Of a stretch of DNA of 57,756 nucleotides, positions 10,650 through 56,071 are shown piece after piece (position 1 is the first letter of the stretch; every line of letters begins with the position of its first letter). The position numbers were made by a program, and so were the translations under genes. The stretch is from a phage, in sequence record PV808483.1, one strand, 5' to 3'. Below the pieces are notes generated by a model. That model was given only the letters and a program-made list of their open reading frames with translations. It ran no database searches and had not been told where the DNA came from.

Positions 10650-10695
10650 AGCATAACCACGTATCTGTAATCCGTCAAGAATTATTTTAACACCG
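10650..10695 (-). promoter_or_regulatory. sigma70-like promoter, UP element + TTGACG, 17-bp spacer, TATGCT
   Basis: Copy of the conserved promoter element. Confidence 0.5.
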
Positions 10696-12841: not shown

Positions 12842-12871
12842 GATTGTGTCCTCCTTTGTTTTGATGTTTGT

Positions 12872-12915
12872 AGGTTACACGTCCTTGTGTAATCCGTCAA
12901 GAATTATTTTAAATT
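12872..12915 (-). promoter_or_regulatory. sigma70-like promoter, UP element + TTGACG, 17-bp spacer, TAACCT
   Basis: Copy of the conserved element; nearly identical over ~50 bp to the copy at 27447..27492. Confidence 0.5.
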
Positions 12916-14012: not shown

Positions 14013-14057
14013 ATGTTAGTGTTACTGCTTGCAATGTGTCAAGAATTATTTTAAACT
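14013..14057 (-). promoter_or_regulatory. sigma70-like promoter, UP element + TTGACA, 18-bp spacer, TAACAT; a possible divergent + strand promoter TTGCAA-N17-TAAACT overlaps it at 14028-14056
   Basis: Copy of the conserved element; face-to-face -35 boxes TTGCAATGTGTCAA. Confidence 0.45.
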
Positions 14058-17547: not shown

Positions 17548-17592
17548 AGGGTAGTTGTGTCGGTGTAATTTGTCAAGAATTATTTTAAAGAT
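17548..17592 (-). promoter_or_regulatory. sigma70-like promoter, UP element + TTGACA, 17-bp spacer, TACCCT
   Basis: Copy of the conserved element on the left edge of the internal AT-rich region. Confidence 0.5.
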
Positions 17593-17882: not shown

Positions 17883-17926
17883 TACGTAAAATAATTCTTG
17901 ACGGATTACACCGACACAACTACCCT
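17883..17926 (+). promoter_or_regulatory. sigma70-like promoter, UP element + TTGACG, 17-bp spacer, TACCCT
   Basis: Mirror-image partner of the promoter at 17548..17592. Confidence 0.5.
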
Positions 17927-17956: not shown

Positions 17957-18304
17957 ATGGATCCGAACATCAGAGTTGCTACAGACGAATTCATTCGTCG
18001 CGCCCGTAAAATTCACGGTGATCGTTACGACTACTCATTCAGCATTGTTGAAGATAGTTCCAGCACAGTGGTTATTATTGACTGTGAAACTAACACAGTG
18101 TTTTTCCAGGTTGTCGCTGAACATCTGGACGGTGTTGAACCAGTAACGACTGCTGTTGAACCAGTAACGACTGCTGTTGAACCGATCAAGAATCTTTCTG
18201 AGATATTCGGTAACGTTGTAAACAGCGTGTATCACCAGTGCAATTATTCATCCGAAATGTTAGAATTTAGTCATGTTGAAACAATACGAGGACAATCCCC
18301 GTGA
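17957..18304 (+). CDS. hypothetical protein carrying a degenerate copy of the endonuclease N-terminal repeat and a VEPVTTA tandem repeat
   Basis: FIRRARKIHGDRYDYSFSIV resembles FITRAREVHGDRYDYSLV of 26624..27235 but lacks the Cys/His ligands; 21-bp tandem repeat at about 18129-18185. Confidence 0.45.
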   Translation: MDPNIRVATDEFIRRARKIHGDRYDYSFSIVEDSSSTVVIIDCETNTVFFQVVAEHLDGVEPVTTAVEPVTTAVEPIKNLSEIFGNVVNSVYHQCNYSSEMLEFSHVETIRGQSP

Positions 18305-25727: not shown

Positions 25728-25751
25728 GCCCGGTTAACGCCGGGCTTTTTT
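25728..25751 (+). terminator. rho-independent terminator GCCCGG-TTAACG-CCGGGC followed by TTTTTT
   Basis: Same hairpin family as the terminators at 1049 and 26521. Confidence 0.7.
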
Positions 25752-25812
25752 GTTTAGTATTTTGTACAGAACTATTACTATCTAATCGTCTACTACATAA
25801 AAGGTAAAAACC

Positions 25813-26235
25813 ATGTCAAAATTTGACCATCTGAAAAAAGCACTTTCCCCATTAGTGCTGAAGTCTTCTGCTGAACTGATTTTAAATGAAAATTTCAGCA
25901 TCACCGTGTTGAACCTGAACACCGCTAACCAGGTATATAACGTAACAGTTGCGGACTATGTAAAACAGAACGGTGTGTTGTCTGAAAACTTCTTTGAAAA
26001 ACTGTGGAATCAGGAATATACACCAGAAGGTATTAAGTTCGTGGCCAATGTTCTTATGCTGGACTGGAAACTGATTGGTGAAGATGACAAACCGGAACCA
26101 TTCAGTGTTGAAGAAGCTATTGAACTGTTAAGTGATGAACGTTTTGGCCAGGTGATCTACAGTCGTGTTATTCAGTTTGCAATTAATTCCGCATTTTTCC
26201 AGGACGAATGGGAAAAACAGATTGAAAAAAACTGA
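25813..26235 (+). CDS. tail assembly chaperone (lambda gpG-like)
   Basis: 140 aa, acidic; precedes the tape measure; ends just after the slippery heptamer. Confidence 0.6.
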   Translation: MSKFDHLKKALSPLVLKSSAELILNENFSITVLNLNTANQVYNVTVADYVKQNGVLSENFFEKLWNQEYTPEGIKFVANVLMLDWKLIGEDDKPEPFSVEEAIELLSDERFGQVIYSRVIQFAINSAFFQDEWEKQIEKN

Positions 26236-26531
26236 TCGACTTCCTCTTGTGGAACGATAAGACAGACGGGGACGACCTGGACTGGGTTACACAAGGGGCG
26301 GCTGCACGTGGTATATCTGTTCCTGTTGTTGTACAGAAACGTCCTGAATTGCGACCTGATGCTATCTTTTACTGGAATGCTTATTTGGATCTGATGGAAG
26401 CTGATTGGGTTGCTTGTGAGCGTTATGCACGGGTATATAACGTTGATGTACAATTCTTGTGGAAATTATTGATAGCATTGCGGTCTGCACGTGTTGCCGA
26501 GATGAAGAAAAATAAACATAAGCCCGGTTAG
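26222..26531 (+). CDS. -1 frameshift extension of the tail assembly chaperone (gpGT-like fusion)
   Basis: Slippery heptamer A AAA AAC at 26226-26232; the -1 frame continues into ORF 26247..26531. Confidence 0.6.
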
Positions 26532-26545
26532 TTCCGGGCTTTTTC
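26521..26545. terminator. terminator AGCCCGG-TTAGTT-CCGGGCT followed by TTTT
   Basis: Hairpin spans the stop of the frameshift product; lies between convergent genes. Confidence 0.65.
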
Positions 26546-26623
26546 ATATATGTAGTCGAGGATTGCAGGAGAGTATTTAAACCACTCTGTAGCACCGTCA
26601 AAACCTTTAAGACGCGCGTTAAG

Positions 26624-27235
26624 TTAATGATAGACCTTGTGTACCTCTTGTTCCAGTTTATACGCGTCGGCGCCTTGTGGGAACGGATACGACACGAGTT
26701 TAACCACGGGGTGTGGAGTTCGTCGTTGTAGTTGTCGTAGTCGCTGTTTTAAGTCGTTTGTAATACCAACTTTAAGCAGAGTAGGACACTGTTTATCGTC
26801 AGTTAACACGTAGAGCGTTCCGTGTTCTGACGGGTTAAAACCTGTTTCAGCGCACTGGGGGCAACCTTGTTTCATTGAAGTGTGATTGTTCGGAGTCTGT
26901 TCAAACACACCGTGTTCTGAACAAATGATTTTCACAGGAGTACACCGATTAACATACTCCACCAACGAATAGTCGTAACGGTCCCCGTGAACTTCACGGG
27001 CGCGTGTAATAAACTCTTCTGTGGTTAAACGTTGTTGCTTAACTGCACATTGGGGACAACCTCTCCCGCGAACATGATTATTAGGAATCTGTTCAAACAC
27101 ACCATGTTCAGGACAGGTGATCTTCACAGGAGTACACCAATTCACATACACCACTAGCGAGTAATCGTATTTGTGCCCATGAACTTCACGGGCACGTGTG
27201 ATAAATTCTTCTGTGGTTAAACGTTTCCTACTCAT
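26624..27235 (-). CDS. endonuclease-like protein: two tandem zinc-ribbon repeats plus a C-terminal T5orf172/GIY-YIG-like domain
   Basis: Repeat TTEEFITRAREVHG-YDYSLV-CTPVKI-C-EHGVFEQ-PNNH-GCPQCA occurs twice; C-terminus GTLYVLTDD...LLKVGITNDLKQRLRQL. Confidence 0.55.
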   Translation of the reverse strand: MSRKRLTTEEFITRAREVHGHKYDYSLVVYVNWCTPVKITCPEHGVFEQIPNNHVRGRGCPQCAVKQQRLTTEEFITRAREVHGDRYDYSLVEYVNRCTPVKIICSEHGVFEQTPNNHTSMKQGCPQCAETGFNPSEHGTLYVLTDDKQCPTLLKVGITNDLKQRLRQLQRRTPHPVVKLVSYPFPQGADAYKLEQEVHKVYH

Positions 27236-27236
27236 C

Positions 27237-27416
27237 TTATTTGTCGCTTTTTAACACAGCCCAGATTAACGCACCTAACCAACCGACGAATGTCCAACCC
27301 GCAAAGATGTTAAGTAAAATAATTGCTGTTTGTTGTTTATGTTTAATGTTAATCGCGATGAGTGCTGGGATCAGATATACAGCAGCGATTAAGAAAAGAA
27401 TGATGAAAGTAGCCAT
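27237..27416 (-). CDS. small membrane protein resembling superinfection-immunity proteins
   Basis: 59 aa; MATFIILFLIAAVYLIPALIA...LLNIFAGWTFVGWLGALIWA; below the ORF-track cutoff. Confidence 0.45.
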   Translation of the reverse strand: MATFIILFLIAAVYLIPALIAINIKHKQQTAIILLNIFAGWTFVGWLGALIWAVLKSDK

Positions 27417-27446
27417 TTTGTAACCCTCCGTTGTTTTGTTGATTGT

Positions 27447-27492
27447 AGGTTACACGTCTTTGTGTAATCCGTCAAGAATTATTTTAAACGTT
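27447..27492 (-). promoter_or_regulatory. sigma70-like promoter, UP element + TTGACG, 17-bp spacer, TAACCT
   Basis: Near-identical to the copy at 12872..12915. Confidence 0.5.
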
Positions 27493-27550
27493 TGTCGCTT
27501 TTTAGACCCGTGTTAAACTGTGTACATGCTTCGTGAAAAGGTTAACCACA

Positions 27551-30118
27551 ATGGCACAGTATCCGATTGATATAAAAATAGACACTGGTAACGCTGACAG
27601 AAATCTTAACAGTCTTAATAACCAGTTAGACCAAACAGCTAATTCTGCAAAATCTGCTGCACAAGCGGCAAACACTTTATCAAAAAGTGAACAGCAAGCT
27701 GCAAAATCTGCACAAGTAATGGCGTCAAATACTGGTAACGCTACATCATCTTTAAAGACGATGGCATCTGGCGTAAATCTTGCAACAAACGCCGTTCGTG
27801 GTTTTATGGCAATAGGTGCGGTGTCTTCTGCTATTGAGTTAGGAAAAGCGTTTATTGTTGCGGGTGATGCAGCTAATCAACTCGAAGCTCGTATTGCAAG
27901 ATTGACCGGGAGTACATCATCAGCCAAACAAACATTTCAAACACTCGCGGATATTGCCTCTAAAACAGGTGGTGGTCTTGCTGATACTGAACGTTTATGG
28001 GAAACCTTATCATCATCATTAAAGGATAGCGGTGCAACAAACGATCAGATATTACGATTAACTGAAACACTTCAAAAAATAGGTCGTGTTGGTGGTTCAT
28101 CTGCTGAAGAAATGTCTAACGCATTACGTCAGTTTGGTCAGTCAATTTCATCTGGTGTAGTTCGTGCAGAAGAATTTAACAGCATTGTTGAACAGATGCC
28201 AGAACTGGCAAGACAGATGGCTGCTGGTTTAGGTATTTCAATGGGTGAGTTACGTCAGCAAATGCTGAATGGTGAACTTACAGCGGAACAAGCATTGAAC
28301 GCTATCATTCGTCAAACGCAAAATGTTGATGAAGAATTTAGCAAATTGCCACGGTCTTTAGATCAGGCCACAAATTCGTTATCTGTATCGTTAGCCACGT
28401 TTGTTGCAAGCATGAATGATGTGACTGGAGCATCAAATCTTGCTGTAGACGCTATTGATACACTTACAGGTTTCATCAATAAATTAGGCGATGATTCAAC
28501 AACAACTGCTGATAAATTGTGGTCAATAGCTGGCGTAATATCTAAGTTACAACCTGGTGCTATCGGAGCATCCCTTGCCGATCTGGTCTGGTCAAATGAT
28601 GATGTAAATAATGCAAAAGCGTACAATGACCAGGTTGATAGATTTGTTAAAGCATCTGCTGCTGGATACGAACAAGCTAAAAAAAACCGTGATGCTACAA
28701 AACCTATTTCTATAAAAGGGACAAATGCATCAGACGCGGAAGCACAAAAACAGATTAAAAATCTGAAAGAGCAGATCACCTACACCCAGGCGCTTGCTGA
28801 CGGTAACTATGAACTGGCAGCAAGTCAGAAACTGGGTAATAAAGCAACTAAGGAACAGATTGCAGACTATGCTGCATTGTTGAAACAACAGGCAGAATAT
28901 AAAGAAAATCAAAAAAACCAGAAAAAATCAGCGAGTGCTGAAGCATCTGCGGCTAAACGTGCACAGAAAGAACTGGAACGTAATCAGGCTGCTAACCAGA
29001 AATACCTGAAAACGCTTCAGGATAAAATCAATGCTGGTAATTATGATGTTCAGTTAGCACGCGAACAGGTTCAGATTGCTTTAACACAGGGGTCGTCTGT
29101 TGAACAACTTACAGCAACATATCAGAAAGAATATCAGGTACGTCAACAGTTAACGCTGGCTTCACAACAAGCAGAAGCACAGTCACGACTGAATAAAGAC
29201 GCGACTGATGCTGAACGTGCCGCTGTTGATGCACATGTGGCTGCATTGCAACGACAACAGCAGGCAGCACAGTTAAGCGCAGGTTTCAAACAGGTACAAA
29301 CCGATGTACAGGGTGAGTTAAACCCGTATCAATCACAGGTTGATCAGGTTAATCAACAGGAAGCACAACGCCTTACTGTCATACAACAAGCCCGTGAACA
29401 AGATTTAATTAACGAGCAACAATACCAGGATATGAAAACGCAGATTCAACAGGCTGGGGAACAAGCCCGTACGAATCTTGCAAACGCTAACTACAGCTTG
29501 TTGCTACAATCCAGTGCTGATTTTTTGGGTCAAATGGCTGCTGGTCTGGCACAATCTAAAGGTGAGCAATCAAACGCGTATAAAGCAATGTTTGCACTGT
29601 CTAAAGCCTTTAGTATCGCACAGGCGAGTATTAACCTGTGGACAGCCGTTAGTCAGGCTATGGCGTTGCCGTTCCCGGCGAATATTCCATTCATTGCACA
29701 GGCTTTATCATACGGAACAAGCGTGTTGGGTAATATTCAGTCTGTGGCTGCAACAGGTTTTGCAACGGGTGGTTATGTTAAAGGTCCGGGTACAGGTCAG
29801 AGTGACAGTATAAACGCACGTTTGAGTAATGGTGAGTTTGTCAGTACCAAACAGGCTACCAGTCGTTATCGTAGCACTCTGGAAGCAATGAACCGTGGCA
29901 CATATACACCAGGATCTGAAGGTAGTTCGTCACCTAATATTCAGGTTCATAACTACGGTGGTGAACGTGTTCAGGTGAAACAAGGATTAACACGAGATGA
30001 CGTAGTGCTTATCATAGGTGAAGAATTCCCACGACAATCAGCGGCACAATGGAATGACCCGTACAGTCAGACGAATAAAGCGTTCAGGTCTAACTATGAT
30101 GCGAACAGGAAAATATAA
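27551..30118 (+). CDS. tail tape measure protein
   Basis: ~856 aa, Ala/Gln-rich and helical; follows the chaperone pair; start at ATG 27551 with AAAAGG upstream. Confidence 0.75.
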   Translation: MAQYPIDIKIDTGNADRNLNSLNNQLDQTANSAKSAAQAANTLSKSEQQAAKSAQVMASNTGNATSSLKTMASGVNLATNAVRGFMAIGAVSSAIELGKAFIVAGDAANQLEARIARLTGSTSSAKQTFQTLADIASKTGGGLADTERLWETLSSSLKDSGATNDQILRLTETLQKIGRVGGSSAEEMSNALRQFGQSISSGVVRAEEFNSIVEQMPELARQMAAGLGISMGELRQQMLNGELTAEQALNAIIRQTQNVDEEFSKLPRSLDQATNSLSVSLATFVASMNDVTGASNLAVDAIDTLTGFINKLGDDSTTTADKLWSIAGVISKLQPGAIGASLADLVWSNDDVNNAKAYNDQVDRFVKASAAGYEQAKKNRDATKPISIKGTNASDAEAQKQIKNLKEQITYTQALADGNYELAASQKLGNKATKEQIADYAALLKQQAEYKENQKNQKKSASAEASAAKRAQKELERNQAANQKYLKTLQDKINAGNYDVQLAREQVQIALTQGSSVEQLTATYQKEYQVRQQLTLASQQAEAQSRLNKDATDAERAAVDAHVAALQRQQQAAQLSAGFKQVQTDVQGELNPYQSQVDQVNQQEAQRLTVIQQAREQDLINEQQYQDMKTQIQQAGEQARTNLANANYSLLLQSSADFLGQMAAGLAQSKGEQSNAYKAMFALSKAFSIAQASINLWTAVSQAMALPFPANIPFIAQALSYGTSVLGNIQSVAATGFATGGYVKGPGTGQSDSINARLSNGEFVSTKQATSRYRSTLEAMNRGTYTPGSEGSSSPNIQVHNYGGERVQVKQGLTRDDVVLIIGEEFPRQSAAQWNDPYSQTNKAFRSNYDANRKI

Positions 30119-31480: not shown

Positions 31481-34001
31481 AGTCATTTATCACACTAATC
31501 CTGTTGAACACGCGGATAACGTTGACTTTGGTGAATGGATGCTGAAACGCTGGCCTGTGGGTACAGTTCGTCCGCGTGGGTTACTGATTTATAAAAACGA
31601 CGAAAACATTACCCAGAAATGGGTCACTGACCCCAGCGTATTAACTGATCCTGATGCTGTTTATCACATTTATGAATTACCAAAAGGTGGGGTGGTTAGT
31701 GCAATAACGAAAGTTATTAGCACAATTCTAAACCCCATTTTAAAATTGTTCATGCCGAATACCAGTGCGTCGGCTAATCTTAAGAACTCACGTTCAGCGT
31801 CGTCTAACAACGCGCTTCAGGGGCGTACCAACGCTTCACGACCGGGTGAACGTATCTCTGATATTCGTGGTCGTGTACTGGCATATCCCGATCTGTTAAT
31901 GGACTACCGAATCTTCATTGACCGAACAGAATATGAAGTTCAGTTTCTGTGTCTGGGTGCTGGTGAATACGAAGTCGAAGATGTTCGTGATGGTATTACA
32001 CCTGCTGTAAATATCAGTGGTGAAAAATTAGACTTTTATAAAAAAGGTAATGCACCTGGGTATGGTTCTCCGTACATGAATATCGGTGGTGCAATTGATA
32101 TTAACACTTTCCCGATCATGGTTGCCAAGTCATCGAACGAAGCAGACGGGTCTGAAGTCAAGCCGCCAAACTATGCTGATATTAGTAAAGCAAGTTTTAA
32201 AATTTACAGCACTGGTGAAATTGACACTACGATTACCAGTGATGATAACACTACGATTGACTGGTCGGAACGTGCACCTATCGGTAGTAAAATTCGTTTA
32301 TCACAGTTTTACAGTTTTACACCTAATACTTTACCGTTAAACACGTATGTACGTAATGACCTGTCCGGTGAATACGATGTTATTTATGCAGGTGAGAATA
32401 CTTTAATCATTGATACTACGGATCGTGATGGTTGGGATGCTCTGTCTGAAAATGGCCAGGCTGCATATACACAGGCTTATTTGCGAAACGACGGTTACTG
32501 GGAATTTGAAACCACTGAAGGAAGTGGAAGTTTTTTATACAAATTTTCACCGTCTCTTGATAGTACCATGCCATATATTGTCGGGCCTTATCTGATTGAT
32601 AGTGCGGATAAACTGATGATCAACCTTTATGCACAGAATGGCGTGTATAAAACTGATGGTGATATTTATCCGTTTACCTGTGACTTCCAGGTAGTCTTGT
32701 CAGACCCGAACGGTGTAAAAGCAAATGTGACACATTCTATGTCTGTCAGTGGTCGCTATACGGAAGCTGTAGGCAGTTCGTTAATTGTGGATAACCCTTT
32801 TGATGGTCCTGTCAACGTGTCTGTAAGACGACTATCAAACACAGATAAAGACTTCGAAGGGTCTGTTGTTGACAACATCAAGTGGCGTGATTTATATGCT
32901 ATCACGAACGTTTCCCCGCGTTCCTACGGTGATGTGACATTGATCCATACTGTGACGAAAGCAACAAACGCTGCACTGAAACAAAAAGAACGTAAATTAA
33001 ACATGATTGCAACACGCGTGTATAACGATGTTGCAAGTAGTAATTTTGCAGACGTTGTAATGTCAATGCACACAGATCCTTTATTTGGTCGTCGCACATT
33101 GGACACCATTGACCGTGATGCTTTATATACTGTTCAGGCACAACTTCTTGAATATTTTGGTGACCAACGAGCAATTGAAGTTGGCTATACATTTGATAAC
33201 AACAGTACGACGTATGAAGAAGGATTGGACACTATCTGTAACACGGTGAACATTAAACCGTATCAGATCGGTAGTGTATTGTATTTTTGGCCTGAATTAC
33301 CACAGGAGCAGTCTGCAATGCAATTCGGTCACGCGTTTAAGATTCCTGACAGTGATAAGCGCACACGTTCTTTCGCACCACCTAAAGAATATACTGGTGT
33401 TCAGGTTAAATATTTCGACCACGATGAAAAATCGTATTTGTATGTAACTAAAGGTGAAGAAACAAATCTTAACAAGATTGACCTTGTTGCGTGTCAGTCG
33501 CGATATCTAGCAAATATCCGTGCTAATCGTGAGATGAATAAATTACGTTATCAACGTATTACTCACGAGTGCACAGCGCTTAGTATCGGGTTACAGGCTA
33601 CCCCGGGTATGCGTGTGGATATGATTGACAATACCCGTATGAAACAACACGAAGGTGTTGTAGTTGACGTTGACGGTTTAACACTTATTCTTAGTGATCC
33701 TGTTACGTTCACCACGGGTAATACATACAGTATAACGTTGACACACCGACTGGGAACACTTGAAAACATTCCTGTAACTGCTGGGGATGATGAATTTTCA
33801 GTGGTAATGGCTTATCAACCATCTGAAGAAATTTATACAGGATGGTTGCGTGACCGTACCGCATATATAATCCGTGCTGATGACGAACGTAGCAAATTAG
33901 CAATGCTTGTTCAGAGTATGGAACCGTCAGGAAGGGATAACAATTATCAGGTAGGTTTAACGTGCATCAATTATGATGCACGTTATTATCAGGATGATTA
34001 A
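31473..34001 (+). CDS. tail tip or central fibre protein (lambda gpJ-like)
   Basis: 842 aa; last gene of the tail block in the lambda J position. Confidence 0.6.
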   Translation: MSKVIYHTNPVEHADNVDFGEWMLKRWPVGTVRPRGLLIYKNDENITQKWVTDPSVLTDPDAVYHIYELPKGGVVSAITKVISTILNPILKLFMPNTSASANLKNSRSASSNNALQGRTNASRPGERISDIRGRVLAYPDLLMDYRIFIDRTEYEVQFLCLGAGEYEVEDVRDGITPAVNISGEKLDFYKKGNAPGYGSPYMNIGGAIDINTFPIMVAKSSNEADGSEVKPPNYADISKASFKIYSTGEIDTTITSDDNTTIDWSERAPIGSKIRLSQFYSFTPNTLPLNTYVRNDLSGEYDVIYAGENTLIIDTTDRDGWDALSENGQAAYTQAYLRNDGYWEFETTEGSGSFLYKFSPSLDSTMPYIVGPYLIDSADKLMINLYAQNGVYKTDGDIYPFTCDFQVVLSDPNGVKANVTHSMSVSGRYTEAVGSSLIVDNPFDGPVNVSVRRLSNTDKDFEGSVVDNIKWRDLYAITNVSPRSYGDVTLIHTVTKATNAALKQKERKLNMIATRVYNDVASSNFADVVMSMHTDPLFGRRTLDTIDRDALYTVQAQLLEYFGDQRAIEVGYTFDNNSTTYEEGLDTICNTVNIKPYQIGSVLYFWPELPQEQSAMQFGHAFKIPDSDKRTRSFAPPKEYTGVQVKYFDHDEKSYLYVTKGEETNLNKIDLVACQSRYLANIRANREMNKLRYQRITHECTALSIGLQATPGMRVDMIDNTRMKQHEGVVVDVDGLTLILSDPVTFTTGNTYSITLTHRLGTLENIPVTAGDDEFSVVMAYQPSEEIYTGWLRDRTAYIIRADDERSKLAMLVQSMEPSGRDNNYQVGLTCINYDARYYQDD

Positions 34002-36037
34002 ATCAATCCATAAATGGCATTGTGTATTACGACACCCCCAACAACAGAGGAAACATTGAAATTAATTTCAGCTTTGTAAGCTCCTGGTGGAACACAATCT
34101 ACCAAAGCATAAAAATTGAACGTGCCTCCTGCTGAGATGTTATATCCCATGGAGTCCGCGACAGCATTTCCTTGTTGGTCAAGGAACCTAAGTGACGCCA
34201 GGGTGGTTGTTGTATTTTTAGCCCAAAAACCAAGCTGAAAATAACGACCTGGCTCACAATCAATGATTGTTTGGGTGAAATTAGCTGCTGCGTCAGATGA
34301 TGGTACAGATAAAACAAAAGAAGTTGAAAACATTAAATCATTAGGAACATCGTTTGTTGTAGTAGCAGTGACAACTCCTGTTCCAGTTTGCGAGAGTGTC
34401 CAGTTAGATATGTTTAAAAACTGTCCTGAGCCATTACTGATGCTATTAATATAAGGGCTTACAATGCTCCCTAAATTCCAGTTACTTGTGATAAATCCTG
34501 CCCGTGGATAGCACCCTCTGGACATTACTTTTTTGCTCGCGCCACCTATCAACTGTCTTGTGGGAAATCCGGTAGCAATCGTTGTATTCCCATAGAGGGG
34601 TAACGAGCAATTATTTAGGCTAACAACCCCATCGCCGTTGCTAACAATAGGTACACTGGTATACCCGTCTGGGAGTAGTATCGTCGAATTACTGACGGTT
34701 AATCGTGAACTGCCATCCACAGTAAACCCAACGAAACTCTGACCAGGTTGGTACTCAATGTTACCGTTTGTGAAAACCACTGTTGCGTTATCTGATAACG
34801 CAACAGTAGGGTCAAAATATCCTGATTTTTTACCTGCCGGTAGAGAGCAGCTATCGAATATAAATTGACCATTAACAAACGTGAAAGGTCCACCGTTGTC
34901 AACCATCCAGCAGTGATTAAATTTTATAACCTCACCGGAATTCGCTGGTGAATTGAAAATAGCAGAATTTGTAAAACTTCTGGACAACGCGCATTTATCA
35001 AAAAGAATACGATATGCATTATCAAGAAACTCAATTCCGGCAGTTGAGATAAACCCACTATTAGATATTCTTAACTCTGATACTACACCACTGGTAGAGC
35101 CACCGATAGCCAATTTCCTGGAACCTTTTCCGACGAATGACACACCACTCATCAAAGCAGTTGCGTTAACTGCATCTCTGTTAATGTAATCCGCGCCTGT
35201 ATTAATAATGGTTAGGTAGTAGTCACCGGTTACAGATGCAGTTTCTGTTAAAGTACATTTATTTTTTCCAATAAGTGCGCCTTTTGCTATGTCGAAAATA
35301 ATCGGTGTTGTTATCTCACCAGAAACAGGAACCACACAGTCAAATCCGGCAGCGTTTATTTTGTTGATGAATACCGCCAAATCTTCGGTTCCAGTATAAC
35401 CAGCATCATACACGTCCACGGTGCCGTTGAAGAATTTTCTTTTCCATACCACACCGTTTCCGGGGAAGGTAACAATATTGTCTACAGTAGTAGTCGCGCT
35501 AACAGCTACCATAATACCACCACCAAAATTAAACCCGCTCACATACGAATCAAGAATTATGGAATCACCAATTGATCCTGATATCGATGATAACTCAGAA
35601 ACTGATGATACAGTCCCTATATAAGACAAACCATTTGATTTGTTTAAATCAGAACGTAACATTAAATCCGTCTGATTAACCCAGTGTGTAGCATCAATAC
35701 CACCCGTAGTTGCAGGTGTTGAACCAGGTGGAACAATTTTAGGCAACATACCCATCCACTGGTAATAATTACCTTCTGATTCATATAGTAGTGTTTCCCA
35801 ACGATGGTTAATAGTACTACCGCCTTCAAACGAACCGTCTGCAGGTTTAAAACCAACTGAACTAAAAAAACCGTCAAGTGTTTTGTTAGTAACTGATTCA
35901 CCACGGATAGTATCCGTTACTTTCAGTGCAGGGTTACCAGCAGCATCACGACTTTTTGTAACGTGTTCAATATGTAAAATCGCTTGTTTGCCTGTTTTCA
36001 AATCATCAGCACTGATATAATCGTTACAGTTAGCCAT
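33998..36037 (-). CDS. tail fibre or tailspike, receptor-binding protein candidate
   Basis: ORF 33998..36064 trimmed to the ATG at 36037 with GGAG upstream; Gly/Ser/Thr/Asn-rich repetitive sequence; reverse orientation. Confidence 0.55.
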   Translation of the reverse strand: MANCNDYISADDLKTGKQAILHIEHVTKSRDAAGNPALKVTDTIRGESVTNKTLDGFFSSVGFKPADGSFEGGSTINHRWETLLYESEGNYYQWMGMLPKIVPPGSTPATTGGIDATHWVNQTDLMLRSDLNKSNGLSYIGTVSSVSELSSISGSIGDSIILDSYVSGFNFGGGIMVAVSATTTVDNIVTFPGNGVVWKRKFFNGTVDVYDAGYTGTEDLAVFINKINAAGFDCVVPVSGEITTPIIFDIAKGALIGKNKCTLTETASVTGDYYLTIINTGADYINRDAVNATALMSGVSFVGKGSRKLAIGGSTSGVVSELRISNSGFISTAGIEFLDNAYRILFDKCALSRSFTNSAIFNSPANSGEVIKFNHCWMVDNGGPFTFVNGQFIFDSCSLPAGKKSGYFDPTVALSDNATVVFTNGNIEYQPGQSFVGFTVDGSSRLTVSNSTILLPDGYTSVPIVSNGDGVVSLNNCSLPLYGNTTIATGFPTRQLIGGASKKVMSRGCYPRAGFITSNWNLGSIVSPYINSISNGSGQFLNISNWTLSQTGTGVVTATTTNDVPNDLMFSTSFVLSVPSSDAAANFTQTIIDCEPGRYFQLGFWAKNTTTTLASLRFLDQQGNAVADSMGYNISAGGTFNFYALVDCVPPGAYKAEINFNVSSVVGGVVIHNAIYGLI

Positions 36038-37703: not shown

Positions 37704-38144
37704 TTACTCCAGTGAATAGATTGTAATTTCGCAATCAATGTTGTTCAATTTTTCATAAATCAAAGGTCTGACTACTGACCATGATAAACCACCATTTGAA
37801 CAACCTAATCGTGGTAATGAAACTGAACGTATTTTAAAGTGTCTGATGACTTTTATAAGATCGTCCAAACCATATTCAATCCATTGTAATTGTGAAGGAT
37901 TACACCAATGCTCTTTAGTTGGAAAATTAATAATTATCTGATTGTTTTCAGATGTGACAAACATTTTTCCAACTTTTACATGGTGTTGTTCACACGCTTT
38001 TCGGTACTGTTTAAAATTGTCAGGAAAGGTTCTTTTAAACGCTAAAGCAATACCTTTACCCATTACACCAACGCAATTCACCGTGTTTACTAGAGCATGT
38101 GAATTGCTTTTAAGAAGGTCCCCCGTGACTTCTATTACTGACAT
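37704..38144 (-). CDS. macrodomain protein (DarG/TARG1-like ADP-ribose-processing fold)
   Basis: LVNTVNCVGVMGKGIALAFKRTFPDNF and PRLGCSNGGL motifs. Confidence 0.7.
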   Translation of the reverse strand: MSVIEVTGDLLKSNSHALVNTVNCVGVMGKGIALAFKRTFPDNFKQYRKACEQHHVKVGKMFVTSENNQIIINFPTKEHWCNPSQLQWIEYGLDDLIKVIRHFKIRSVSLPRLGCSNGGLSWSVVRPLIYEKLNNIDCEITIYSLE

Positions 38145-38646
38145 AACAATAACTCCTGTACGCTTGTCGTTTTATTTTCTGATAGTCGGAAACTTTTACA
38201 GATCTCGTTTTACATTCACCGATACGATATGGGTCGAAAACAAACATCACCTGTGAACGGTCATTTCCTCCTGCTGGTAACCTGGTGTCAGGATCTACAA
38301 ACGCTATACGACCTTTAAACACCCATAGTTCCGAACAATGTGTCAGTGCTTTGTGAAACCAGTCTGCAGACGTCATAGCGTTCACGAGTAATAACGAACC
38401 AGTTCCTTGATGAACAGTGGTTATTATTTTATTAACCCATGGAGACGGATCGCTGTATGGTGGATTACACCAGACGAACCCACCACCATTACTTTGAACA
38501 ATCGAATTCCAGTCTTTATTCAGACTATCAGTGATAAACAACGAACATTTAGCGTTAGAACCATCGGTACACACATCAAGAACAAGTGGGAATTCACGAG
38601 AAACGTTATCAATAAAATCCCACGGTGTTTCCCAGTTGTCTTTAGC
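38110..38646 (-). CDS. dam: DNA N6-adenine methyltransferase (phage Dam family)
   Basis: WETPWDFI N-terminus and VWCNPPYS catalytic motif; ORF 38110..38766 trimmed to the ATG at 38646. Confidence 0.75.
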   Translation of the reverse strand, partial: AKDNWETPWDFIDNVSREFPLVLDVCTDGSNAKCSLFITDSLNKDWNSIVQSNGGGFVWCNPPYSDPSPWVNKIITTVHQGTGSLLLVNAMTSADWFHKALTHCSELWVFKGRIAFVDPDTRLPAGGNDRSQVMFVFDPYRIGECKTRSVKVSDYQKIKRQAYRSYCYVSNRSHGGPS

Positions 38647-38998
38647 CATGTTCCGGTACGCTCTCCACGCTGTAATAAACGGGGATACCCAGACGTTCAG
38701 CTTCTGCAATTTCCGCAATAGTCCCGGACGAACGACGATAATCAGGAAGCACCAGAACAGCGTCACAGCGGCGCATAATTTCTAACGTGCCTGACAGGTA
38801 GTATTCAGGTTGTATATTGCGTAAACCTCCGTCAAAGTCCCACAATTCGGTGTTCTTGTGAGGGATAACAGGGAACCACCCCGGACGTTGTAAAGCAAGT
38901 CGTTTACCTGCCTGTTCAGCGCGTGACACGTTACGGGATGTTTTAAGCGCACAGTCAGCACGATAAGGCCCGGCAATGTAACAGAGTTTAATCATGGT
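38642..38998 (-). CDS. nucleoside 2-deoxyribosyltransferase-like protein
   Basis: CYIAGPYRA N-terminal motif and C-terminal DAVLVLPDYRRSSGTIAEIAEAERLGIPVY; ORF 38642..39085 trimmed to the ATG at 38998. Confidence 0.55.
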   Translation of the reverse strand, partial: TMIKLCYIAGPYRADCALKTSRNVSRAEQAGKRLALQRPGWFPVIPHKNTELWDFDGGLRNIQPEYYLSGTLEIMRRCDAVLVLPDYRRSSGTIAEIAEAERLGIPVYYSVESVPEHG

Positions 38999-39219
38999 TG
39001 TTTTCCTGCATCTGTATAATGAGCTATGATTTCTTCCAAACAATTTATTGTGAAGAGAAATTTTAAACCAACCCGACATTCCCAAATATGTTCTCTCAGA
39101 TCTCTTGGGTCGGTGTACCCTCCGACAATAATAAAATTTTTAATCTCTTGTTTATATTTATCGGGAACGAAGTTGAAAAAGTCACGTTTAGTCTTAATTT
39201 CCCGACTGAATCTAGTCAT
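38992..39219 (-). CDS. hypothetical protein
   Basis: 75-aa ORF. Confidence 0.4.
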   Translation of the reverse strand: MTRFSREIKTKRDFFNFVPDKYKQEIKNFIIVGGYTDPRDLREHIWECRVGLKFLFTINCLEEIIAHYTDAGKQP

Positions 39220-44533: not shown

Positions 44534-44576
44534 ACTTTAAAAGGTGTTGTGTAATCTGTCAAGAATTATTTTACAC
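44534..44576 (-). promoter_or_regulatory. sigma70-like promoter, UP element + TTGACA, 17-bp spacer, TAAAGT
   Basis: Copy of the conserved element. Confidence 0.5.
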
Positions 44577-44595: not shown

Positions 44596-44640
44596 ATGTT
44601 AGAGGAATAAGTTGCAATGCGTCAAGAACTATTTTAAACT
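44596..44640 (-). promoter_or_regulatory. sigma70-like promoter, UP element + TTGACG, 18-bp spacer, TAACAT; overlaps a candidate + strand promoter TTGCAA-N17-TAAACT (44612-44640) for the helicase gene
   Basis: Same face-to-face -35 arrangement (TTGCAATGCGTCAA) as at 14028-14057. Confidence 0.45.
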
Positions 44641-50532: not shown

Positions 50533-50577
50533 CGTGTAAAATAATTCTTGACGAATTACAGATATGTGCGCTATAGT
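50533..50577 (+). promoter_or_regulatory. sigma70-like promoter, UP element + TTGACG, 18-bp spacer, TATAGT
   Basis: Copy of the conserved element in forward orientation. Confidence 0.55.
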
Positions 50578-51905: not shown

Positions 51906-52297
51906 TAATTGTCGTCACAGGTGGTCGTGACTTTAACGACAGAACAGCAGTGTTTTCCGCGTTAGGACTACTTCACAAACAATTTCCGGTTACCGAACTG
52001 ATTGAAGGTGGTGCGTCAGGTGTTGATAACCTGTGTAAGCAATGGGCGCAATTACACGGTATTCCTGTGCGTAGTTGCCCGGCAGCGTGGGACGATCTGA
52101 CTGTACCTGGTGCGGTTGTAAAACAAGGTGAGCACGGGCCTTATAACGCTGTTGCAGGTCATCAACGTAATCAGGCGATGTTAGAGGGTGAACCACGCCC
52201 TACATACGGTGTTGTGTTCCCCGGTGGGCGTGGTACGGCTGATATGCACCGTCGCATGTTGAAAGCTGGTTTAACCGTGTGGGTTCCGTATCCTTAA
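51902..52297 (+). CDS. SLOG-fold protein (DUF2493/YpsA-like)
   Basis: VVTGGRDFND ... LIEGGASGVDNL ... WA pattern. Confidence 0.5.
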   Translation: MIIVVTGGRDFNDRTAVFSALGLLHKQFPVTELIEGGASGVDNLCKQWAQLHGIPVRSCPAAWDDLTVPGAVVKQGEHGPYNAVAGHQRNQAMLEGEPRPTYGVVFPGGRGTADMHRRMLKAGLTVWVPYP

Positions 52298-52334
52298 AAT
52301 AATTCTTGACAGATTACCAACCCTCCCCGATAAT
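52295..52334 (+). promoter_or_regulatory. sigma70-like promoter, UP element + TTGACA, 17-bp spacer, GATAAT
   Basis: Copy of the conserved element. Confidence 0.55.
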
Positions 52335-52368: not shown

Positions 52369-53136
52369 ATGGCTAACATTAACTCCCTTCGCAAACTGTC
52401 TGATACCGATAAAACCAACGTAAAACGTGGTAATGCGTATCGTATTGATCCGCGTATTATCAAGATTCGTCCAGGACATAACCCACGCGGTGTGTTTACC
52501 GACAACTACTGGGAAACTGAAGCAGCACTGGCACACATTGAAAACTTTCGTCAGGCTTATACTAACGGCGATTTCGTTCCACCCATCGTGGTACAGGTTG
52601 TTGACGGTGTTCCGTATGTCCAGGATGGTGAGCATCGTTTACGTGGTGTATTGGCAGCTATTGACGCCGGGACGCCGATTCTGACAGTAGACGTTGTTGA
52701 ATCGTCCGGTGACGAACTACAACAGACCCTGACACTGTTAAAAGGTAATGAAGGTAAACCGTGGTCCCCTGTTGAACGTGCTGTTATTTACGGTCGTTTC
52801 CGTTCATATGGCATGAGTGTTGAGCAGATCGCTACACAGGTCGGTAAAACCGTTCAGCACGTTTACGAACAACTGAATATTCTTGATATGCCGCTGGAAC
52901 TTAAACGTCGTATTCAGAACGGCGAAATCAGCGCGTCAGCAGCCATTCGCCAGTTTAAAGCAGGTGATAAAGAACCAGTAGTAACGCGTCGTCCGCCTGC
53001 TAAACTGGTACGGTCTGCAGTGGAAGCAATCCGTGGTGAATGGTCTGTAACCCGTTCGGAAGGTGGTAAAGTCCTGGTTGAACTTACCGCTGAACAGTTT
53101 GAAGCGTTAAAAGCACTGAAGGAGCACCAGTTATGA
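52369..53136 (+). CDS. ParB-like nuclease domain protein
   Basis: VQDGEHRLRG motif in an N-terminal ParB/Srx-like region. Confidence 0.55.
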   Translation: MANINSLRKLSDTDKTNVKRGNAYRIDPRIIKIRPGHNPRGVFTDNYWETEAALAHIENFRQAYTNGDFVPPIVVQVVDGVPYVQDGEHRLRGVLAAIDAGTPILTVDVVESSGDELQQTLTLLKGNEGKPWSPVERAVIYGRFRSYGMSVEQIATQVGKTVQHVYEQLNILDMPLELKRRIQNGEISASAAIRQFKAGDKEPVVTRRPPAKLVRSAVEAIRGEWSVTRSEGGKVLVELTAEQFEALKALKEHQL

Positions 53137-53324
53137 AAAACCGTAAAGCAAAGATTCTGTTAGTTCGTAGAAACGCTCCTGGCGTCTGGCAGTGGGTGAG
53201 ACTCAGCAACCGACGGATGGGGTTGATGAAATATTACGGGATGATGGATTGCAGTTTTTGCAAAAAAACCCAGCGCGGCGCAAAACCGCTGGAAAAACCA
53301 CTTTCGCATTAAAGGAGAGTGATA

Positions 53325-53521
53325 TGGCAACCAACAATCGTAAAGCCAAGATGCTTATTTCCCGTGTATACAGCCGTTGCTATCCCAGCCAGTGGTTGAG
53401 AGTTAGCAATCGCCGTATGGTGTTGTACTTATATTCTGGAATTGCCAGAGATGGAATCAAAGATAAGCGTAGCGCGGCGCAAAACCGCTGGAAAAACCAC
53501 TTGCGTACTAAAGGAGAGTGA
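53325..53521 (+). CDS. hypothetical small basic protein
   Basis: 65 aa; shares a ~60-bp leader and initiation region with the next gene. Confidence 0.4.
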
Positions 53522-53522
53522 T

Positions 53523-53786
53523 ATGGCAACTTTAACAAAAAAAGAACGGGCATGGTTGAATGAATTACAGGACGTTCTTGATCGCTGCCCATCACCGAAA
53601 AAAATTGGTTTTTACACCATTGGCGATAAAAGCATTTACCTGTATGACCTACGCCGCATGGATGAAATCATGGAGGCTCTTGATAATCGTTCGTCGGTGG
53701 ATTGGTGTGTTGCTGTCCATGATATGAATGCCGGATTTGATGAAAAGATTTTGTTCCCCTCATCAGTTGAAAGCACTGCGGGTTAA
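53523..53786 (+). CDS. hypothetical small protein
   Basis: 88 aa; duplicated leader upstream. Confidence 0.45.
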   Translation: MATLTKKERAWLNELQDVLDRCPSPKKIGFYTIGDKSIYLYDLRRMDEIMEALDNRSSVDWCVAVHDMNAGFDEKILFPSSVESTAG

Positions 53787-53796
53787 GGAGTAACAC

Positions 53797-54465
53797 ATGA
53801 CCACTATTACCAAAGAGCGACTGCTGACAATCAGGCAATGGCGCGAAACATACGGACCTGGTAGCAATGTTGTACTGCCAGCAGAAGAAGCGGAAGAACT
53901 GGCACGAATTGCTCTGGCATCGCTGGAAGCAGAACCAGTTGCTTATATTTTCAAACATCCGGCCGGGAAATTATTCTGGGCTTTAACGGATGAAAGCAAT
54001 AAAGAGCAACCGGACGTTATTCCTGTTTATGCTGACTCACCTGCGCCGGTTGTGCCGGATGAAATAGACGTAAACGATGTACCAAGGGCGGTGACATATT
54101 TCAAGACACACAGAGATTGTTACGCAGATGGCTGGAACGCCTGCCGCGCCGCCATGCTTCAGTCCGGAAACTTTCGGGAAAACAAGAATTCGTCAACCAA
54201 TAATTTTCGGGAAATCGCGGAAACGTCAACCAACTATCCGGTAATTCCTAGTGAGGTGTTGTCCGCAATCCTGAAGGTTGCCAAGATTCGTGCCGATTTC
54301 GATGATTTTGACGGTGACAGGCGAGGTATCGGTGATTGTCTGGATGAGGCTGAGCAAGAGCTTATCGTTACCATTAACAAATATGCCAGTCAGTTAGCAG
54401 CAGAACCGATAGCGACTAATGAAAATCGTTGGGTTGCCAAACTAACCGGGAGTAAAAAGAAATGA
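53797..54465 (+). CDS. hypothetical protein
   Basis: 222-aa ORF with AGGAG upstream. Confidence 0.5.
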   Translation: MTTITKERLLTIRQWRETYGPGSNVVLPAEEAEELARIALASLEAEPVAYIFKHPAGKLFWALTDESNKEQPDVIPVYADSPAPVVPDEIDVNDVPRAVTYFKTHRDCYADGWNACRAAMLQSGNFRENKNSSTNNFREIAETSTNYPVIPSEVLSAILKVAKIRADFDDFDGDRRGIGDCLDEAEQELIVTINKYASQLAAEPIATNENRWVAKLTGSKKK

Positions 54466-54632
54466 CTAAAATCTACATTACAAAATATGCATTAACAACT
54501 GGTGTTTTCAGTGTAGATGCTAAAATAAAATCAGATGGTACAAGTGCAACTTTCTACGACAAAAGAAACATACGACAGTTTGTTTATGGTAAAGATTTTT
54601 GGTTGACACCGGAAGAGGCTTTTATTGATTGA
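54462..54632 (+). CDS. hypothetical small protein (56 aa)
   Basis: ATGA overlap with the upstream stop; below the ORF-track cutoff. Confidence 0.3.
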   Translation: MTKIYITKYALTTGVFSVDAKIKSDGTSATFYDKRNIRQFVYGKDFWLTPEEAFID

Positions 54633-54721
54633 GAGCGTCGTCGAATAAACAAATTAAAATCTCTGGAGAAACAGAAACAAAAAATCGAAAGTTTAAACTT
54701 TCAAATTATTAAGGAACATTT

Positions 54722-54946
54722 ATGACTATCCGACTGATGAATCCAACCGTTGCCCGTGATATTAAACCGGGTGACAAGATTGAAGTATTTAACGAATGGT
54801 ACTGGGTACGTTATATCAATTACCACGGGGCAACACTTACGCTTCGCTTACAACCGGAAGATGAACCGCTATCACCATTTTTCGAAAACGACCGCGTTGT
54901 GGTGACAGTACCAGAAGATCTAATGATTGATGTCGAGGTGCGTTAA
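54722..54946 (+). CDS. hypothetical small protein
   Basis: 74-aa ORF. Confidence 0.4.
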   Translation: MTIRLMNPTVARDIKPGDKIEVFNEWYWVRYINYHGATLTLRLQPEDEPLSPFFENDRVVVTVPEDLMIDVEVR

Positions 54947-55270
54947 ATGACTGTATATGAAATGGAAGGTTTTCTTCGTGGTAAATGTGTTCCGGGTGAT
55001 CTGAAAGTTAACGAAACAAACGCTGAATATCTTGTCCGTAAGTTCGGTGAACTTGAAAATAAATGTGCGGCGCTGGCTGAGGAGAATGTTCGACTTAAGT
55101 CAGGTATAGCTGGCCTGATACATCTCGGTATTCGATACGCAGATGTTGATGTAATGAAAATTGCTGGAGATGCACAGCTTTCTACCCCATGCACTGATGA
55201 CATCATAAACAGCATTATCCAAAAAGAAACCAGTGATAAACGTGCACAAGCACAAAATGTTCCCTCGTAA
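54947..55270 (+). CDS. hypothetical protein
   Basis: 107-aa ORF. Confidence 0.4.
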   Translation: MTVYEMEGFLRGKCVPGDLKVNETNAEYLVRKFGELENKCAALAEENVRLKSGIAGLIHLGIRYADVDVMKIAGDAQLSTPCTDDIINSIIQKETSDKRAQAQNVPS

Positions 55271-55499
55271 CGGTTTGAAGTGGTCCGCACGAGATCTGGC
55301 GTTATTAAAAATTAATGCAGGAAAGATCAGTGCGGATGAAATAGCGTATTACCTTCGCCGGGACGTTGAAGCGGTACACATTAAAGCGTCACGTCTCGGT
55401 ATATCACTGGTAACCAATAAATGTAAACGTGGTCATGCGCGAGTTTACAAAAAAGGTAGATGGCGCTGTCCTGAGTGTAGAAAATTAAAAGGGTATTAA
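55257..55499 (+). CDS. small zinc-ribbon protein, possible regulator
   Basis: C-terminal CKRGH...CPECRK; ORF 55233..55499 with start placed at the ATG at 55257 overlapping the upstream stop. Confidence 0.4.
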   Translation: MFPRNGLKWSARDLALLKINAGKISADEIAYYLRRDVEAVHIKASRLGISLVTNKCKRGHARVYKKGRWRCPECRKLKGY

Positions 55500-55501
55500 A
55501 T

Positions 55502-56071
55502 ATGACACCTGAACAATTCGCAACAGCAGCACACGGTGATCAACTTCGTAAGTATACCAACGACCCATATGTGAACCACTGCCGGAACGTTGCTGAACTG
55601 GTTAAACGCTATGGTGGTACGCCGGATATGGTTACCGCTGCCTGGCTGCATGACGTCGTTGAAGATACGCCCGTGACCGTGGGTGATGTGTGTTCGCAGT
55701 TCGGTGAGACTGTGGCACGTTATGTTGATCAGCTTACTGATGTGAGTCGTCCACACCACGGCAACCGTGTTAAGCGTAAAGCACGGGACATCGACCATTT
55801 ATCACGGGCTGAACCTGTGGTGAAAACTATAAAACTGTGTGATCTGCTGGATAACACATCTTCAATTGACCGACACGATCCGAAGTTTGCTGTAACATAC
55901 CTGGCTGAAAAACAACTCATGCTTGCTCACCTGTCAGACGCCAGTAATCAGGAGTTATACGCGCTTGTTGAGCGTGAATTGTTTAAAGCCAAATACAAAC
56001 TAACGAACGTCCAGTTAACCGCGTTTGACAAACACTACGACGCACTGGTTAAAGCGATGGGGGAGTTGTGA
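55502..56071 (+). CDS. HD-domain phosphohydrolase resembling a small alarmone ((p)ppGpp) hydrolase
   Basis: AAHGDQLRKYTNDPYVNHCRNVAELV and AAWLHDVVEDT match the RelA/SpoT hydrolase-domain signature as I recall it. Confidence 0.65.
   Translation: MTPEQFATAAHGDQLRKYTNDPYVNHCRNVAELVKRYGGTPDMVTAAWLHDVVEDTPVTVGDVCSQFGETVARYVDQLTDVSRPHHGNRVKRKARDIDHLSRAEPVVKTIKLCDLLDNTSSIDRHDPKFAVTYLAEKQLMLAHLSDASNQELYALVERELFKAKYKLTNVQLTAFDKHYDALVKAMGEL

Follow-up and report, generated by a model that had tools for sequence, protein, structure and literature searches.

Between the tail assembly chaperone genes and the tape measure gene of a 9NA-like siphovirus lies a block of DNA that is read in the opposite direction to both. 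Here we analyse this block, a cassette of two genes, in sequence record PV808483.1 (57,756 nucleotides (nt), referred to throughout as the window), which is a variant of Escherichia phage vB_EcoS_PJ16 (OQ955832.1). The two reverse-strand open reading frames (ORFs) span 26624–27235 (203 amino acids) and 27237–27416 (59 amino acids) and are annotated in OQ955832.1 as PJ16_055 and PJ16_056. A preliminary description, made from the letters of the window, had reported a reverse-strand two-gene unit between a frameshifted chaperone pair and the tape measure gene; both ORFs lie where it placed them, and the flanking genes are as it described. We find that the cassette is an optional insertion that pairs a gene of the Imm superinfection-exclusion family with what appears to be a decayed homing endonuclease gene.

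Occupied and empty sites

Homology breaks against the phages Sasha and AVIO78A define an inserted cassette of 957 bp (26552–27508, minus strand): similarity to both phages, at 96–97%, ends at 26551 and restarts at 27509. The insert stands in place of 9 bp, TATGGTTAA, that are present in empty sites and absent from occupied sites, and no target-site duplication was seen at the insert junctions. At least five empty sites were verified. The gap between the chaperone and tape measure genes is 57–72 bp in Sasha, AVIO78A, PDP46, the outgroup 9NA and Klebsiella phage Kpn BU9; this is the comparison that the preliminary description had proposed as a check on its suggestion of an insertion, and it bears the suggestion out. 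The same spot is occupied, with both genes present, in ten genomes or contigs (PJ16, Bas82, BDX09P1, 536P12, three ENA contigs, one Logan contig and two IMG/VR contigs). One of these occupied loci, on a metagenomic phage contig of 58,965 bp (L009), is 92–96% identical to Sasha on both flanks, including the whole tape measure gene, and the two differ at the locus solely in a clean insert of 1153 bp, present where Sasha has the 9 bp TATGGTTAA. Because the outgroups are empty, insertion is the parsimonious direction of change, and 26552–27508 is a derived insertion.

Two of the features by which morons are recognized (Hendrix/Juhala) are found here: the insert lies between genes that are adjacent in relatives, and by sequence it has its own promoter and terminator, the latter in common with the chaperone gene. 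The most variable part of the cassette among occupied sites is the Zn-ribbon region of the endonuclease gene (67–89% identity).

The tail assembly chaperone pair (G/GT-like) occupies 25813–26531 on the plus strand, with a short form at 25813–26235 and a −1 frameshift product that continues to 26531. A canonical −1 slippery heptamer, A_AAA_AAC, can be read at 26226–26232 and leads into the 26247–26531 frame, the extension itself covering 26232–26531; the Sasha and AVIO78A chaperones are annotated with the same slippage. Both parts match PHROG 8233, and the second part matches Phage_TAC_18 with E = 5.8e-05 at 23.6 bits, below the Pfam cut-off of 27 bits. The tape measure gene (TMP) follows the insert at 27551–30118 on the plus strand (Pfam TMP_3, E = 6e-53).

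Relative to OQ955832.1, whose length it matches exactly, the window has 1389 substitutions in a patchy spread and 0 indels. Substitutions are absent from 2001–3000, 27001–28000, 34001–35000, 38001–39000 and 53001–56000, and only 3 occur from 56001 to the end; there are 0 differences across 26549–27550, and the cassette is identical in both records. In a sampled 3.7-kb stretch, relatives side with the window at around half of the sites that differ from OQ955832.1. Judged from these patterns, the differences look like natural polymorphism on a scaffold of reference length.

Regulatory sequences at the cassette edges

The cassette begins with a promoter and leader (27424–27488, minus strand) that comprise an A/T-rich block (27476–27488), a −35 hexamer TTGACG (27470–27475), a 17-nt spacer, a −10 hexamer TAACCT (27447–27452) and a ribosome-binding site GGAGGG (27424–27429). 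The preliminary description had credited the unit with its own copy of a promoter conserved across the window, and an exact copy of TTTAAAATAATTCTTGACGGATTACAC is present at 27462–27488 on the minus strand. This conserved promoter is of the sigma-70 type and has around 14 strong copies in the window; the core of the cassette copy is identical to that of the others, and no 32-nt promoter match is expected in the window by chance. The likeness extends into the leader, with 64 nt of promoter and leader (27425–27488) being 94% identical to 12850–12913.

In its extended form, TTTAAAATAATTCTTGAC(G/A)GATTACAC, the promoter stands at the head both of every reverse-strand block among the late genes and of the early region that is read rightward. 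Copies lie at 1520–1533, 3795–3808, 6539–6552, 10674–10687, 12896–12909, 14038–14051, 17572–17585, 17889–17902, 27471–27484, 44558–44571, 44621–44634, 50539–50552 and 52297–52310. The positions of these copies at reverse blocks suggest that the late structural genes are repeatedly broken up by opposite-strand early units. The earlier picture of an otherwise co-directional tail operon consequently holds locally, but not genome-wide, where many promoter-led reverse-strand blocks lie between late genes.

On the other side, a predicted bidirectional terminator hairpin (26520–26541, both strands; terminator scan) is common to the chaperone gene and the cassette. Its fold has an energy of −15 kcal/mol (z = −2.6), and it is one of a three-copy family (1052, 25728 and 26522). 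A 14-nt direct repeat, TTTGTCGCTTTTTA, has one plus-strand copy at 27240–27253, in the last codons of the 59-amino-acid ORF, and the other at 27491–27504, 4 nt short of the right-hand end of the insert. These are the only 2 copies in the window, against 0.06 expected; they flank the module of promoter and membrane-protein gene at a start-to-start distance of 251 bp. The repeat is kept in all ten occupied loci, with Bas82 carrying the same C-to-T change in both copies.

These edges raise the question of whether the cassette was placed or moved by recombination between the repeated promoter and terminator, with the endonuclease as mere cargo. The three-copy-family terminator and the roughly 14-copy promoter that edge the cassette, the 64-nt match to 12850–12913 and the 14-nt repeat on either side of the promoter-led module all speak for such an origin, as does a second variable site at about 25755, at which endonuclease-free, promoter-led reverse cassettes are found in Sasha, AVIO78A, Bas82, 536P12 and PDP46. 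However, neither junction falls within the repeats—the left lies 10 bp past the hairpin and the right 20 bp past the promoter block—and the endonuclease, which belongs to a typically mobile family, is found in every occupied site seen. We regard recombination of this kind as the sole placing force as somewhat unlikely; it and endonuclease homing are not mutually exclusive.

The second variable site (~25746–25812) extends from the tail tube terminator to the chaperone gene and is empty in the window and BDX09P1. Its reverse-strand, promoter-led occupants are a 706-bp cassette in Sasha (gp43, 207 amino acids, no Pfam match), 248 bp in AVIO78A and around 338 bp with an 87-amino-acid ORF in Bas82 and 536P12; PDP46 has the same 87-amino-acid reverse ORF.

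Arbiol et al. reportedly described, in 2010, mobile regulatory cassettes of T4-type phages that consist of an early promoter and a stem-loop (promoter-early/stem-loop, PeSL). As in the window, optional ORFs of PeSL cassettes lie between a repeated early promoter and a stem-loop, and many such units occur genome-wide. The junctions of the cassette studied here lie just outside the repeats, by contrast, and the phage group and the promoter sequence are unrelated.

A small predicted membrane protein of the Imm family

The first gene of the cassette (27237–27416, minus strand) encodes a predicted small inner-membrane protein of 59 amino acids with two hydrophobic segments (residues 1–26 and 30–55 by hydropathy). 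Its resemblance to superinfection-immunity proteins, noted in the preliminary description, is confirmed by a match over the full length of Imm_superinfect (PF14373, positions 1–42 of 42; E = 1e-16, 61 bits against a cut-off of 27.9) and by a match to PHROG 1039, ‘immunity to superinfection’. In an alignment of 8 diverse PF14373 members, Y14, P17, A21, W41, G45, W46 and W52 are invariant, and the family core Y-x-x-P ... G-W-x-x-x-G-W ... W is present, including W41, which corresponds to W50 of T4 Imm. On this sequence evidence, the protein is clearly a member of PF14373, the family of T4 Imm; we refer to its gene as imm. The gene is intact in all ten occupied loci, at 93–98% protein identity. 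The ratio of nonsynonymous to synonymous substitution rates (dN/dS) is unusable for imm, as pairs differ at 1–8 positions, mostly nonsynonymous. PADLOC returned no match for Imm, NCBIfam returned nothing meaningful and Rfam gave sub-threshold matches only.

T4 Imm, the founding member of PF14373, itself matches the profile (58 bits) and shares with the 59-amino-acid protein 26% identity over 47 residues, the core motif and the interface Trp; it is the product of an early gene of a virulent phage. It differs in being 83 amino acids long, with one more helix at the N terminus and a tail at the C terminus. According to a 2026 preprint, it binds the T4 tape measure protein at the helical-bundle domain of the latter, and the substitutions W50A and R33A weaken exclusion (bioRxiv 10.64898/2026.03.06.709160).

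The protein might instead serve another membrane role, such as in lysis timing or in the evasion of defences. Most members of PF14373 are untested; here another residue stands in place of the Arg that matters in T4 Imm, neither the first helix nor the tail of the T4 protein has a counterpart, and the PADLOC search was negative. On the other side stand a strong match to the family, an invariant Y..P / GW..GW..W core with the Trp that lies at the Imm–tape measure interface in T4, and the recurrence of family members beside tape measure genes. We therefore think a different role unlikely.

Imm genes beside tape measure genes

Homologues of Imm adjoin the tape measure gene in Skatevirus, Swiduovirus and a Pseudomonas phage. 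We sampled 80 IMG/VR loci with Imm-like genes, which form 27 clusters at 70% identity and are biased towards relatives of the 59-amino-acid protein. In 8 of the 27 clusters (49 of the 80 loci), a tape measure gene of the TMP_3, TMP_2/lambda or PHROG-TMP type lies 124–1200 bp away, compared with a rough chance expectation of 5–7% per lineage, in which lineages are sequence clusters rather than counts on a tree. The adjacent tape measure proteins belong to at least two Pfam TMP families. In one further cluster, a GpJ-like tail tip gene lies 1.3–2 kb downstream of the Imm gene. Such proximity is absent from T4, unlike the window: T4 imm (26.4 kb) is not next to the tape measure gene, gene 29 (~118.7–119.4 kb).

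The moron gp15 of phage HK97 offers a parallel at the same slot, as the gene of a small inner-membrane protein between a frameshifted chaperone pair and TMP. HK97 gp15 blocks genome entry, and whether an incoming phage is sensitive depends on its tail region (Juhala et al. 2000; Cumby et al. 2012; PMC3594210); the 2026 preprint describes gp15 as interacting with the tape measure protein (bioRxiv 10.64898/2026.03.06.709160). Like the cassette, gp15 forms a transcription unit of its own and is missing from related phages. The two proteins have no sequence similarity, however, gp15 being YebO-like and not a member of PF14373; moreover, gp15 is co-directional with the tail genes of a temperate phage, is expressed from the prophage and has no endonuclease partner.

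The tape measure gene beside the cassette is itself variable. Over around 1.2 kb at its 5′ end (27530 to ~28740), the window carries a divergent allele of an 855-amino-acid type, as opposed to the 971-amino-acid type of Sasha and AVIO78A; identity to these phages (blastn) is 76–77% over the first 200 nt, then undetectable, and 96–97% from about 28740. The 855-amino-acid type was seen only together with the cassette in our sample (7 loci). The cassette itself occurs with both 5′ alleles: strict linkage to the PJ16-type allele was considered and rejected, as L009–L011 carry the cassette with a Sasha-type TMP. The variable Zn-ribbon region and the two TMP 5′ alleles are consistent with the exchange boundaries reported for T5orf172 homing endonucleases (PMC10448857).

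Tentatively, the adjacency of imm and TMP could be functional and not a matter of chance, with Imm genes recruited beside TMP repeatedly and in unrelated siphovirus lineages and, in 9NA-like phages, an endonuclease-coupled ‘drive plus exclusion’ module keeping the exclusion specificity and the TMP variant co-inherited; we consider this doubtful at present. If true, the unit would spread Imm into co-infecting relatives and mark a boundary at which TMP 5′ alleles are exchanged.

A decayed T5orf172 homing endonuclease

The stop codon of imm sits 1 nt ahead of the ATG of the second gene. The preliminary description had assigned to the 203-amino-acid product two tandem zinc-ribbon repeats and a T5orf172/GIY-YIG-like domain. 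Both assignments stand, but a premature stop was overlooked, and the T5orf172 match ends at position 66 of 101. Three-frame translation and comparison with Bas82, 536P12 and BDX09P1 indicate that the full extent of the gene, here a pseudogene, is 26528–27235 on the minus strand. The frame comprises 203 codons and then a TAA stop at 26624–26626 that arose by a GAA-to-TAA change; beyond it, 31 codons (LNARLKGFDGATEWFKYSPAILDYIYEKARN) continue in frame, cut off from the rest, as far as the original stop at 26528–26530, within the terminator. Homologues align by tblastn through the stop to 26531, and 30 of the 31 residues of the orphaned tail, which bears the invariant G-x-T-E-W motif, match those of intact alleles. 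An intact version of 235 amino acids (P0023) is 91% identical.

Two tandem Zn-ribbon DNA-binding modules of around 63 amino acids each (26840–27226, minus strand; Pfam) resemble DUF723/DUF4379/CapR and have the pattern C-P-x-H ... C-x-x-C. At the DNA level the repeats are 84% identical over 151 nt, with a spacing of 192 nt. Most alleles encode 300–304 amino acids with three Zn-ribbon repeats and some encode 235 amino acids with two; repeat 2 of the window corresponds to repeats 2 and 3 of the closely related BDX09P1/P0001 allele fused into one, so that one of three repeats has been lost. A C-terminal deletion was considered as the cause of the shortfall of around 206 bp relative to Bas82, and was rejected because the alignment resolves it into an in-frame Zn-ribbon loss and a separate nonsense codon.

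The first two thirds of a T5orf172 nuclease domain (GIY-YIG fold) follow at 26627–26830 (minus strand), with strands 1–3 and helices 1 and 2 kept. The match to T5orf172 scores 35.1 bits (threshold 20) over positions 1–66 of 101, against 55 bits over positions 1–94 for the Bas82 allele; MUG113 was also matched, and the protein matches PHROG 681, ‘endonuclease’, with E = 1e-58. The truncated domain is incomplete: residues 204–235 fall beyond the premature stop, and with them the (T)EWF strand (invariant G-F-x-G-x-T-E-W) and the C-terminal helix. R165 and E195 are invariant in 23 homologues and are both present in the 203-amino-acid product. We had considered that truncation removed a catalytic Glu in GATEWF; alignment with ICP1 Odn instead places E180 (the equivalent of I-TevI E75) at the Glu of KLEQEVHK, which is retained. 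A PDB sequence search gave no match, and PADLOC returned a weak PDC-S57 match to the nuclease domain only. An intact homologue has the GIY-YIG fold, and by its sequence the gene is best classified as a free-standing T5orf172 (GIY-YIG) homing endonuclease, a decayed member of a class described earlier. The truncated product is probably inactive as a nuclease, and we would expect a nuclease assay to be negative.

The family to which the gene belongs behaves as mobile elements do. It is represented in 1098 phage records, at up to 14 places per genome among the records listed, often beside or inside essential genes; in Klebsiella phages, a member lies between the halves of the DNA polymerase. Four paralogues in a related 9NA-like phage (loci L009/L011, L021, L022 and L023; ENA contig k141_561431, 58,439 bp), every one of them next to an essential gene, lie between chaperone and TMP, at the portal gene, before a Mu-F-like head morphogenesis gene and upstream of the primase–helicase. 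Other GIY-YIG endonuclease genes, whose products have different DNA-binding modules, are likewise intergenic and optional among relatives, with flanking markers that differ. The window has a single, truncated, T5orf172 copy, and 9NA has an annotated endonuclease upstream of the major tail gene.

T5orf172 nuclease activity has been demonstrated for Odn (Gp88) of ICP1, in which E180A abolishes it (PMC8263062), and T5orf172 homing endonucleases with Zn-finger repeats, exchange-boundary positions and in-frame repeat deletions have been described (Barth, Dunham & Seed 2023; PMC10448857). The ICP1 enzymes share with the gene studied here N-terminal CapR/DUF723/DUF4379 repeats, a C-terminal T5orf172 domain and the conserved Arg and Glu; they also lie beside essential genes at the boundaries of exchanged segments, and gp174* of ICP1 has undergone a comparable in-frame loss of a repeat by recombination. 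The phage group and insertion site differ, and the gene in the window, unlike those of ICP1, is truncated and tied to an exclusion gene.

Given two complete Zn-ribbon modules and an open frame of 203 codons, the product might have been domesticated as a nuclease-dead DNA-binding protein, for example a regulator, much as CapR, a satellite protein, derives from endonucleases of this kind. Domestication of this class of domain is documented (PMC8096241, PMC10448857), and a DUF723-like module that stands alone, PJ16_042, is also encoded in the window. Against this, the truncation occurs in one genome only; the in-frame tail with its 30 matching residues points to a very recent single-base event; the sister allele, BDX09P1, is broken differently, by an independent frameshift in the same domain; and 8 of the 10 alleles are full length and intact. 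Domestication is accordingly very unlikely.

PJ16_042 (17957–18304, plus strand, 115 amino acids) lies directly 3′ of a copy of the conserved promoter. It contains one DUF723-like Zn-ribbon module, 38–44% identical to the endonuclease repeats (tblastn), has no nuclease domain or Pfam match, and may have arisen from the DNA-binding part of the endonuclease as a free-standing module.

Model for the cassette

We consider it probable that the insert is a composite, self-contained early unit, consisting of an Imm exclusion gene and a homing endonuclease that has decayed in PJ16 and is probably no longer able to mobilize the unit. The earlier suggestion of a mobile endonuclease or exclusion module is supported by the optional insert, by an endonuclease family that behaves as homing endonucleases do and by the Imm-family match. 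Most likely, an early-expressed exclusion gene hitch-hikes with a homing endonuclease that is now probably dead.

The unit sits at a punctuation point, with the chaperone terminator on one side and the TMP ribosome-binding site on the other. Transcription by host RNA polymerase would begin at the cassette’s copy of the conserved promoter, proceed leftward through both genes and end at the bidirectional terminator shared with the chaperone gene. If it acts as T4 Imm does, the 59-amino-acid protein would insert into the inner membrane early in infection and block genome entry of later related phages by binding their tape measure protein as it begins to form the membrane channel. The endonuclease would probably be translationally coupled to imm, and its tandem Zn-ribbon modules would recognize DNA. 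An intact endonuclease would cleave the empty allele carried by a co-infecting relative, and both its gene and imm would then be copied into the break. Owing to the loss of an endonuclease repeat and the nonsense codon, the cassette is probably no longer self-mobile in PJ16, while Imm is kept.

Several observations weigh against this interpretation. The G+C content of the cassette (0.41–0.47) is the same as that of its flanks, so the difference in base composition by which morons are also recognized is not seen. A generic sigma-70 scan did not list the cassette promoter, because its −10 hexamer is weak. The existence of other variable reverse-strand cassettes without an endonuclease implies that an endonuclease is not required for such insertions. 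In Imm, the column of T4 R33 is occupied by Ile24 (Val in some alleles), with Lys25 adjoining; the Arg equivalent to R33 matters functionally in T4 and is not family-defining. In the endonuclease, equivalents of the catalytic Arg and Glu are retained, so that only the lost β-strand and helix point to inactivity, and the TAA stop comes from one sequence, given that the cassette is identical in OQ955832.1.

That the cassette is instead ancestral and was deleted from the phages without it, as direct repeats and repeated regulatory sequences could favour, is extremely unlikely, because the outgroup 9NA and more-distant Klebsiella relatives are empty, the 9-bp filler TATGGTTAA is common to empty sites and absent from occupied ones, and Imm is 93–99% alike across backbones that are far more divergent in the adjacent tape measure gene.

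Implications

The components of the cassette and the type of site that it occupies are all of known kinds. Their combination here is an optional early unit within a late tail operon, in which an exclusion gene accompanies a homing endonuclease in the decay phase of its life cycle, and PJ16_055 is a truncated homing endonuclease rather than a ‘hypothetical protein’. In phage cocktails, an Imm-bearing phage may exclude its relatives. Bas82, a member of the BASEL collection in which both genes are intact, is a tractable phage for the study of an Imm-mediated block to entry via the tape measure protein and of T5orf172 homing. Two leads of interest are the linkage of Imm to tape measure genes and the association of an exclusion gene with a homing endonuclease, and the recurrent placement of Imm beside tape measure genes could be of wider interest.

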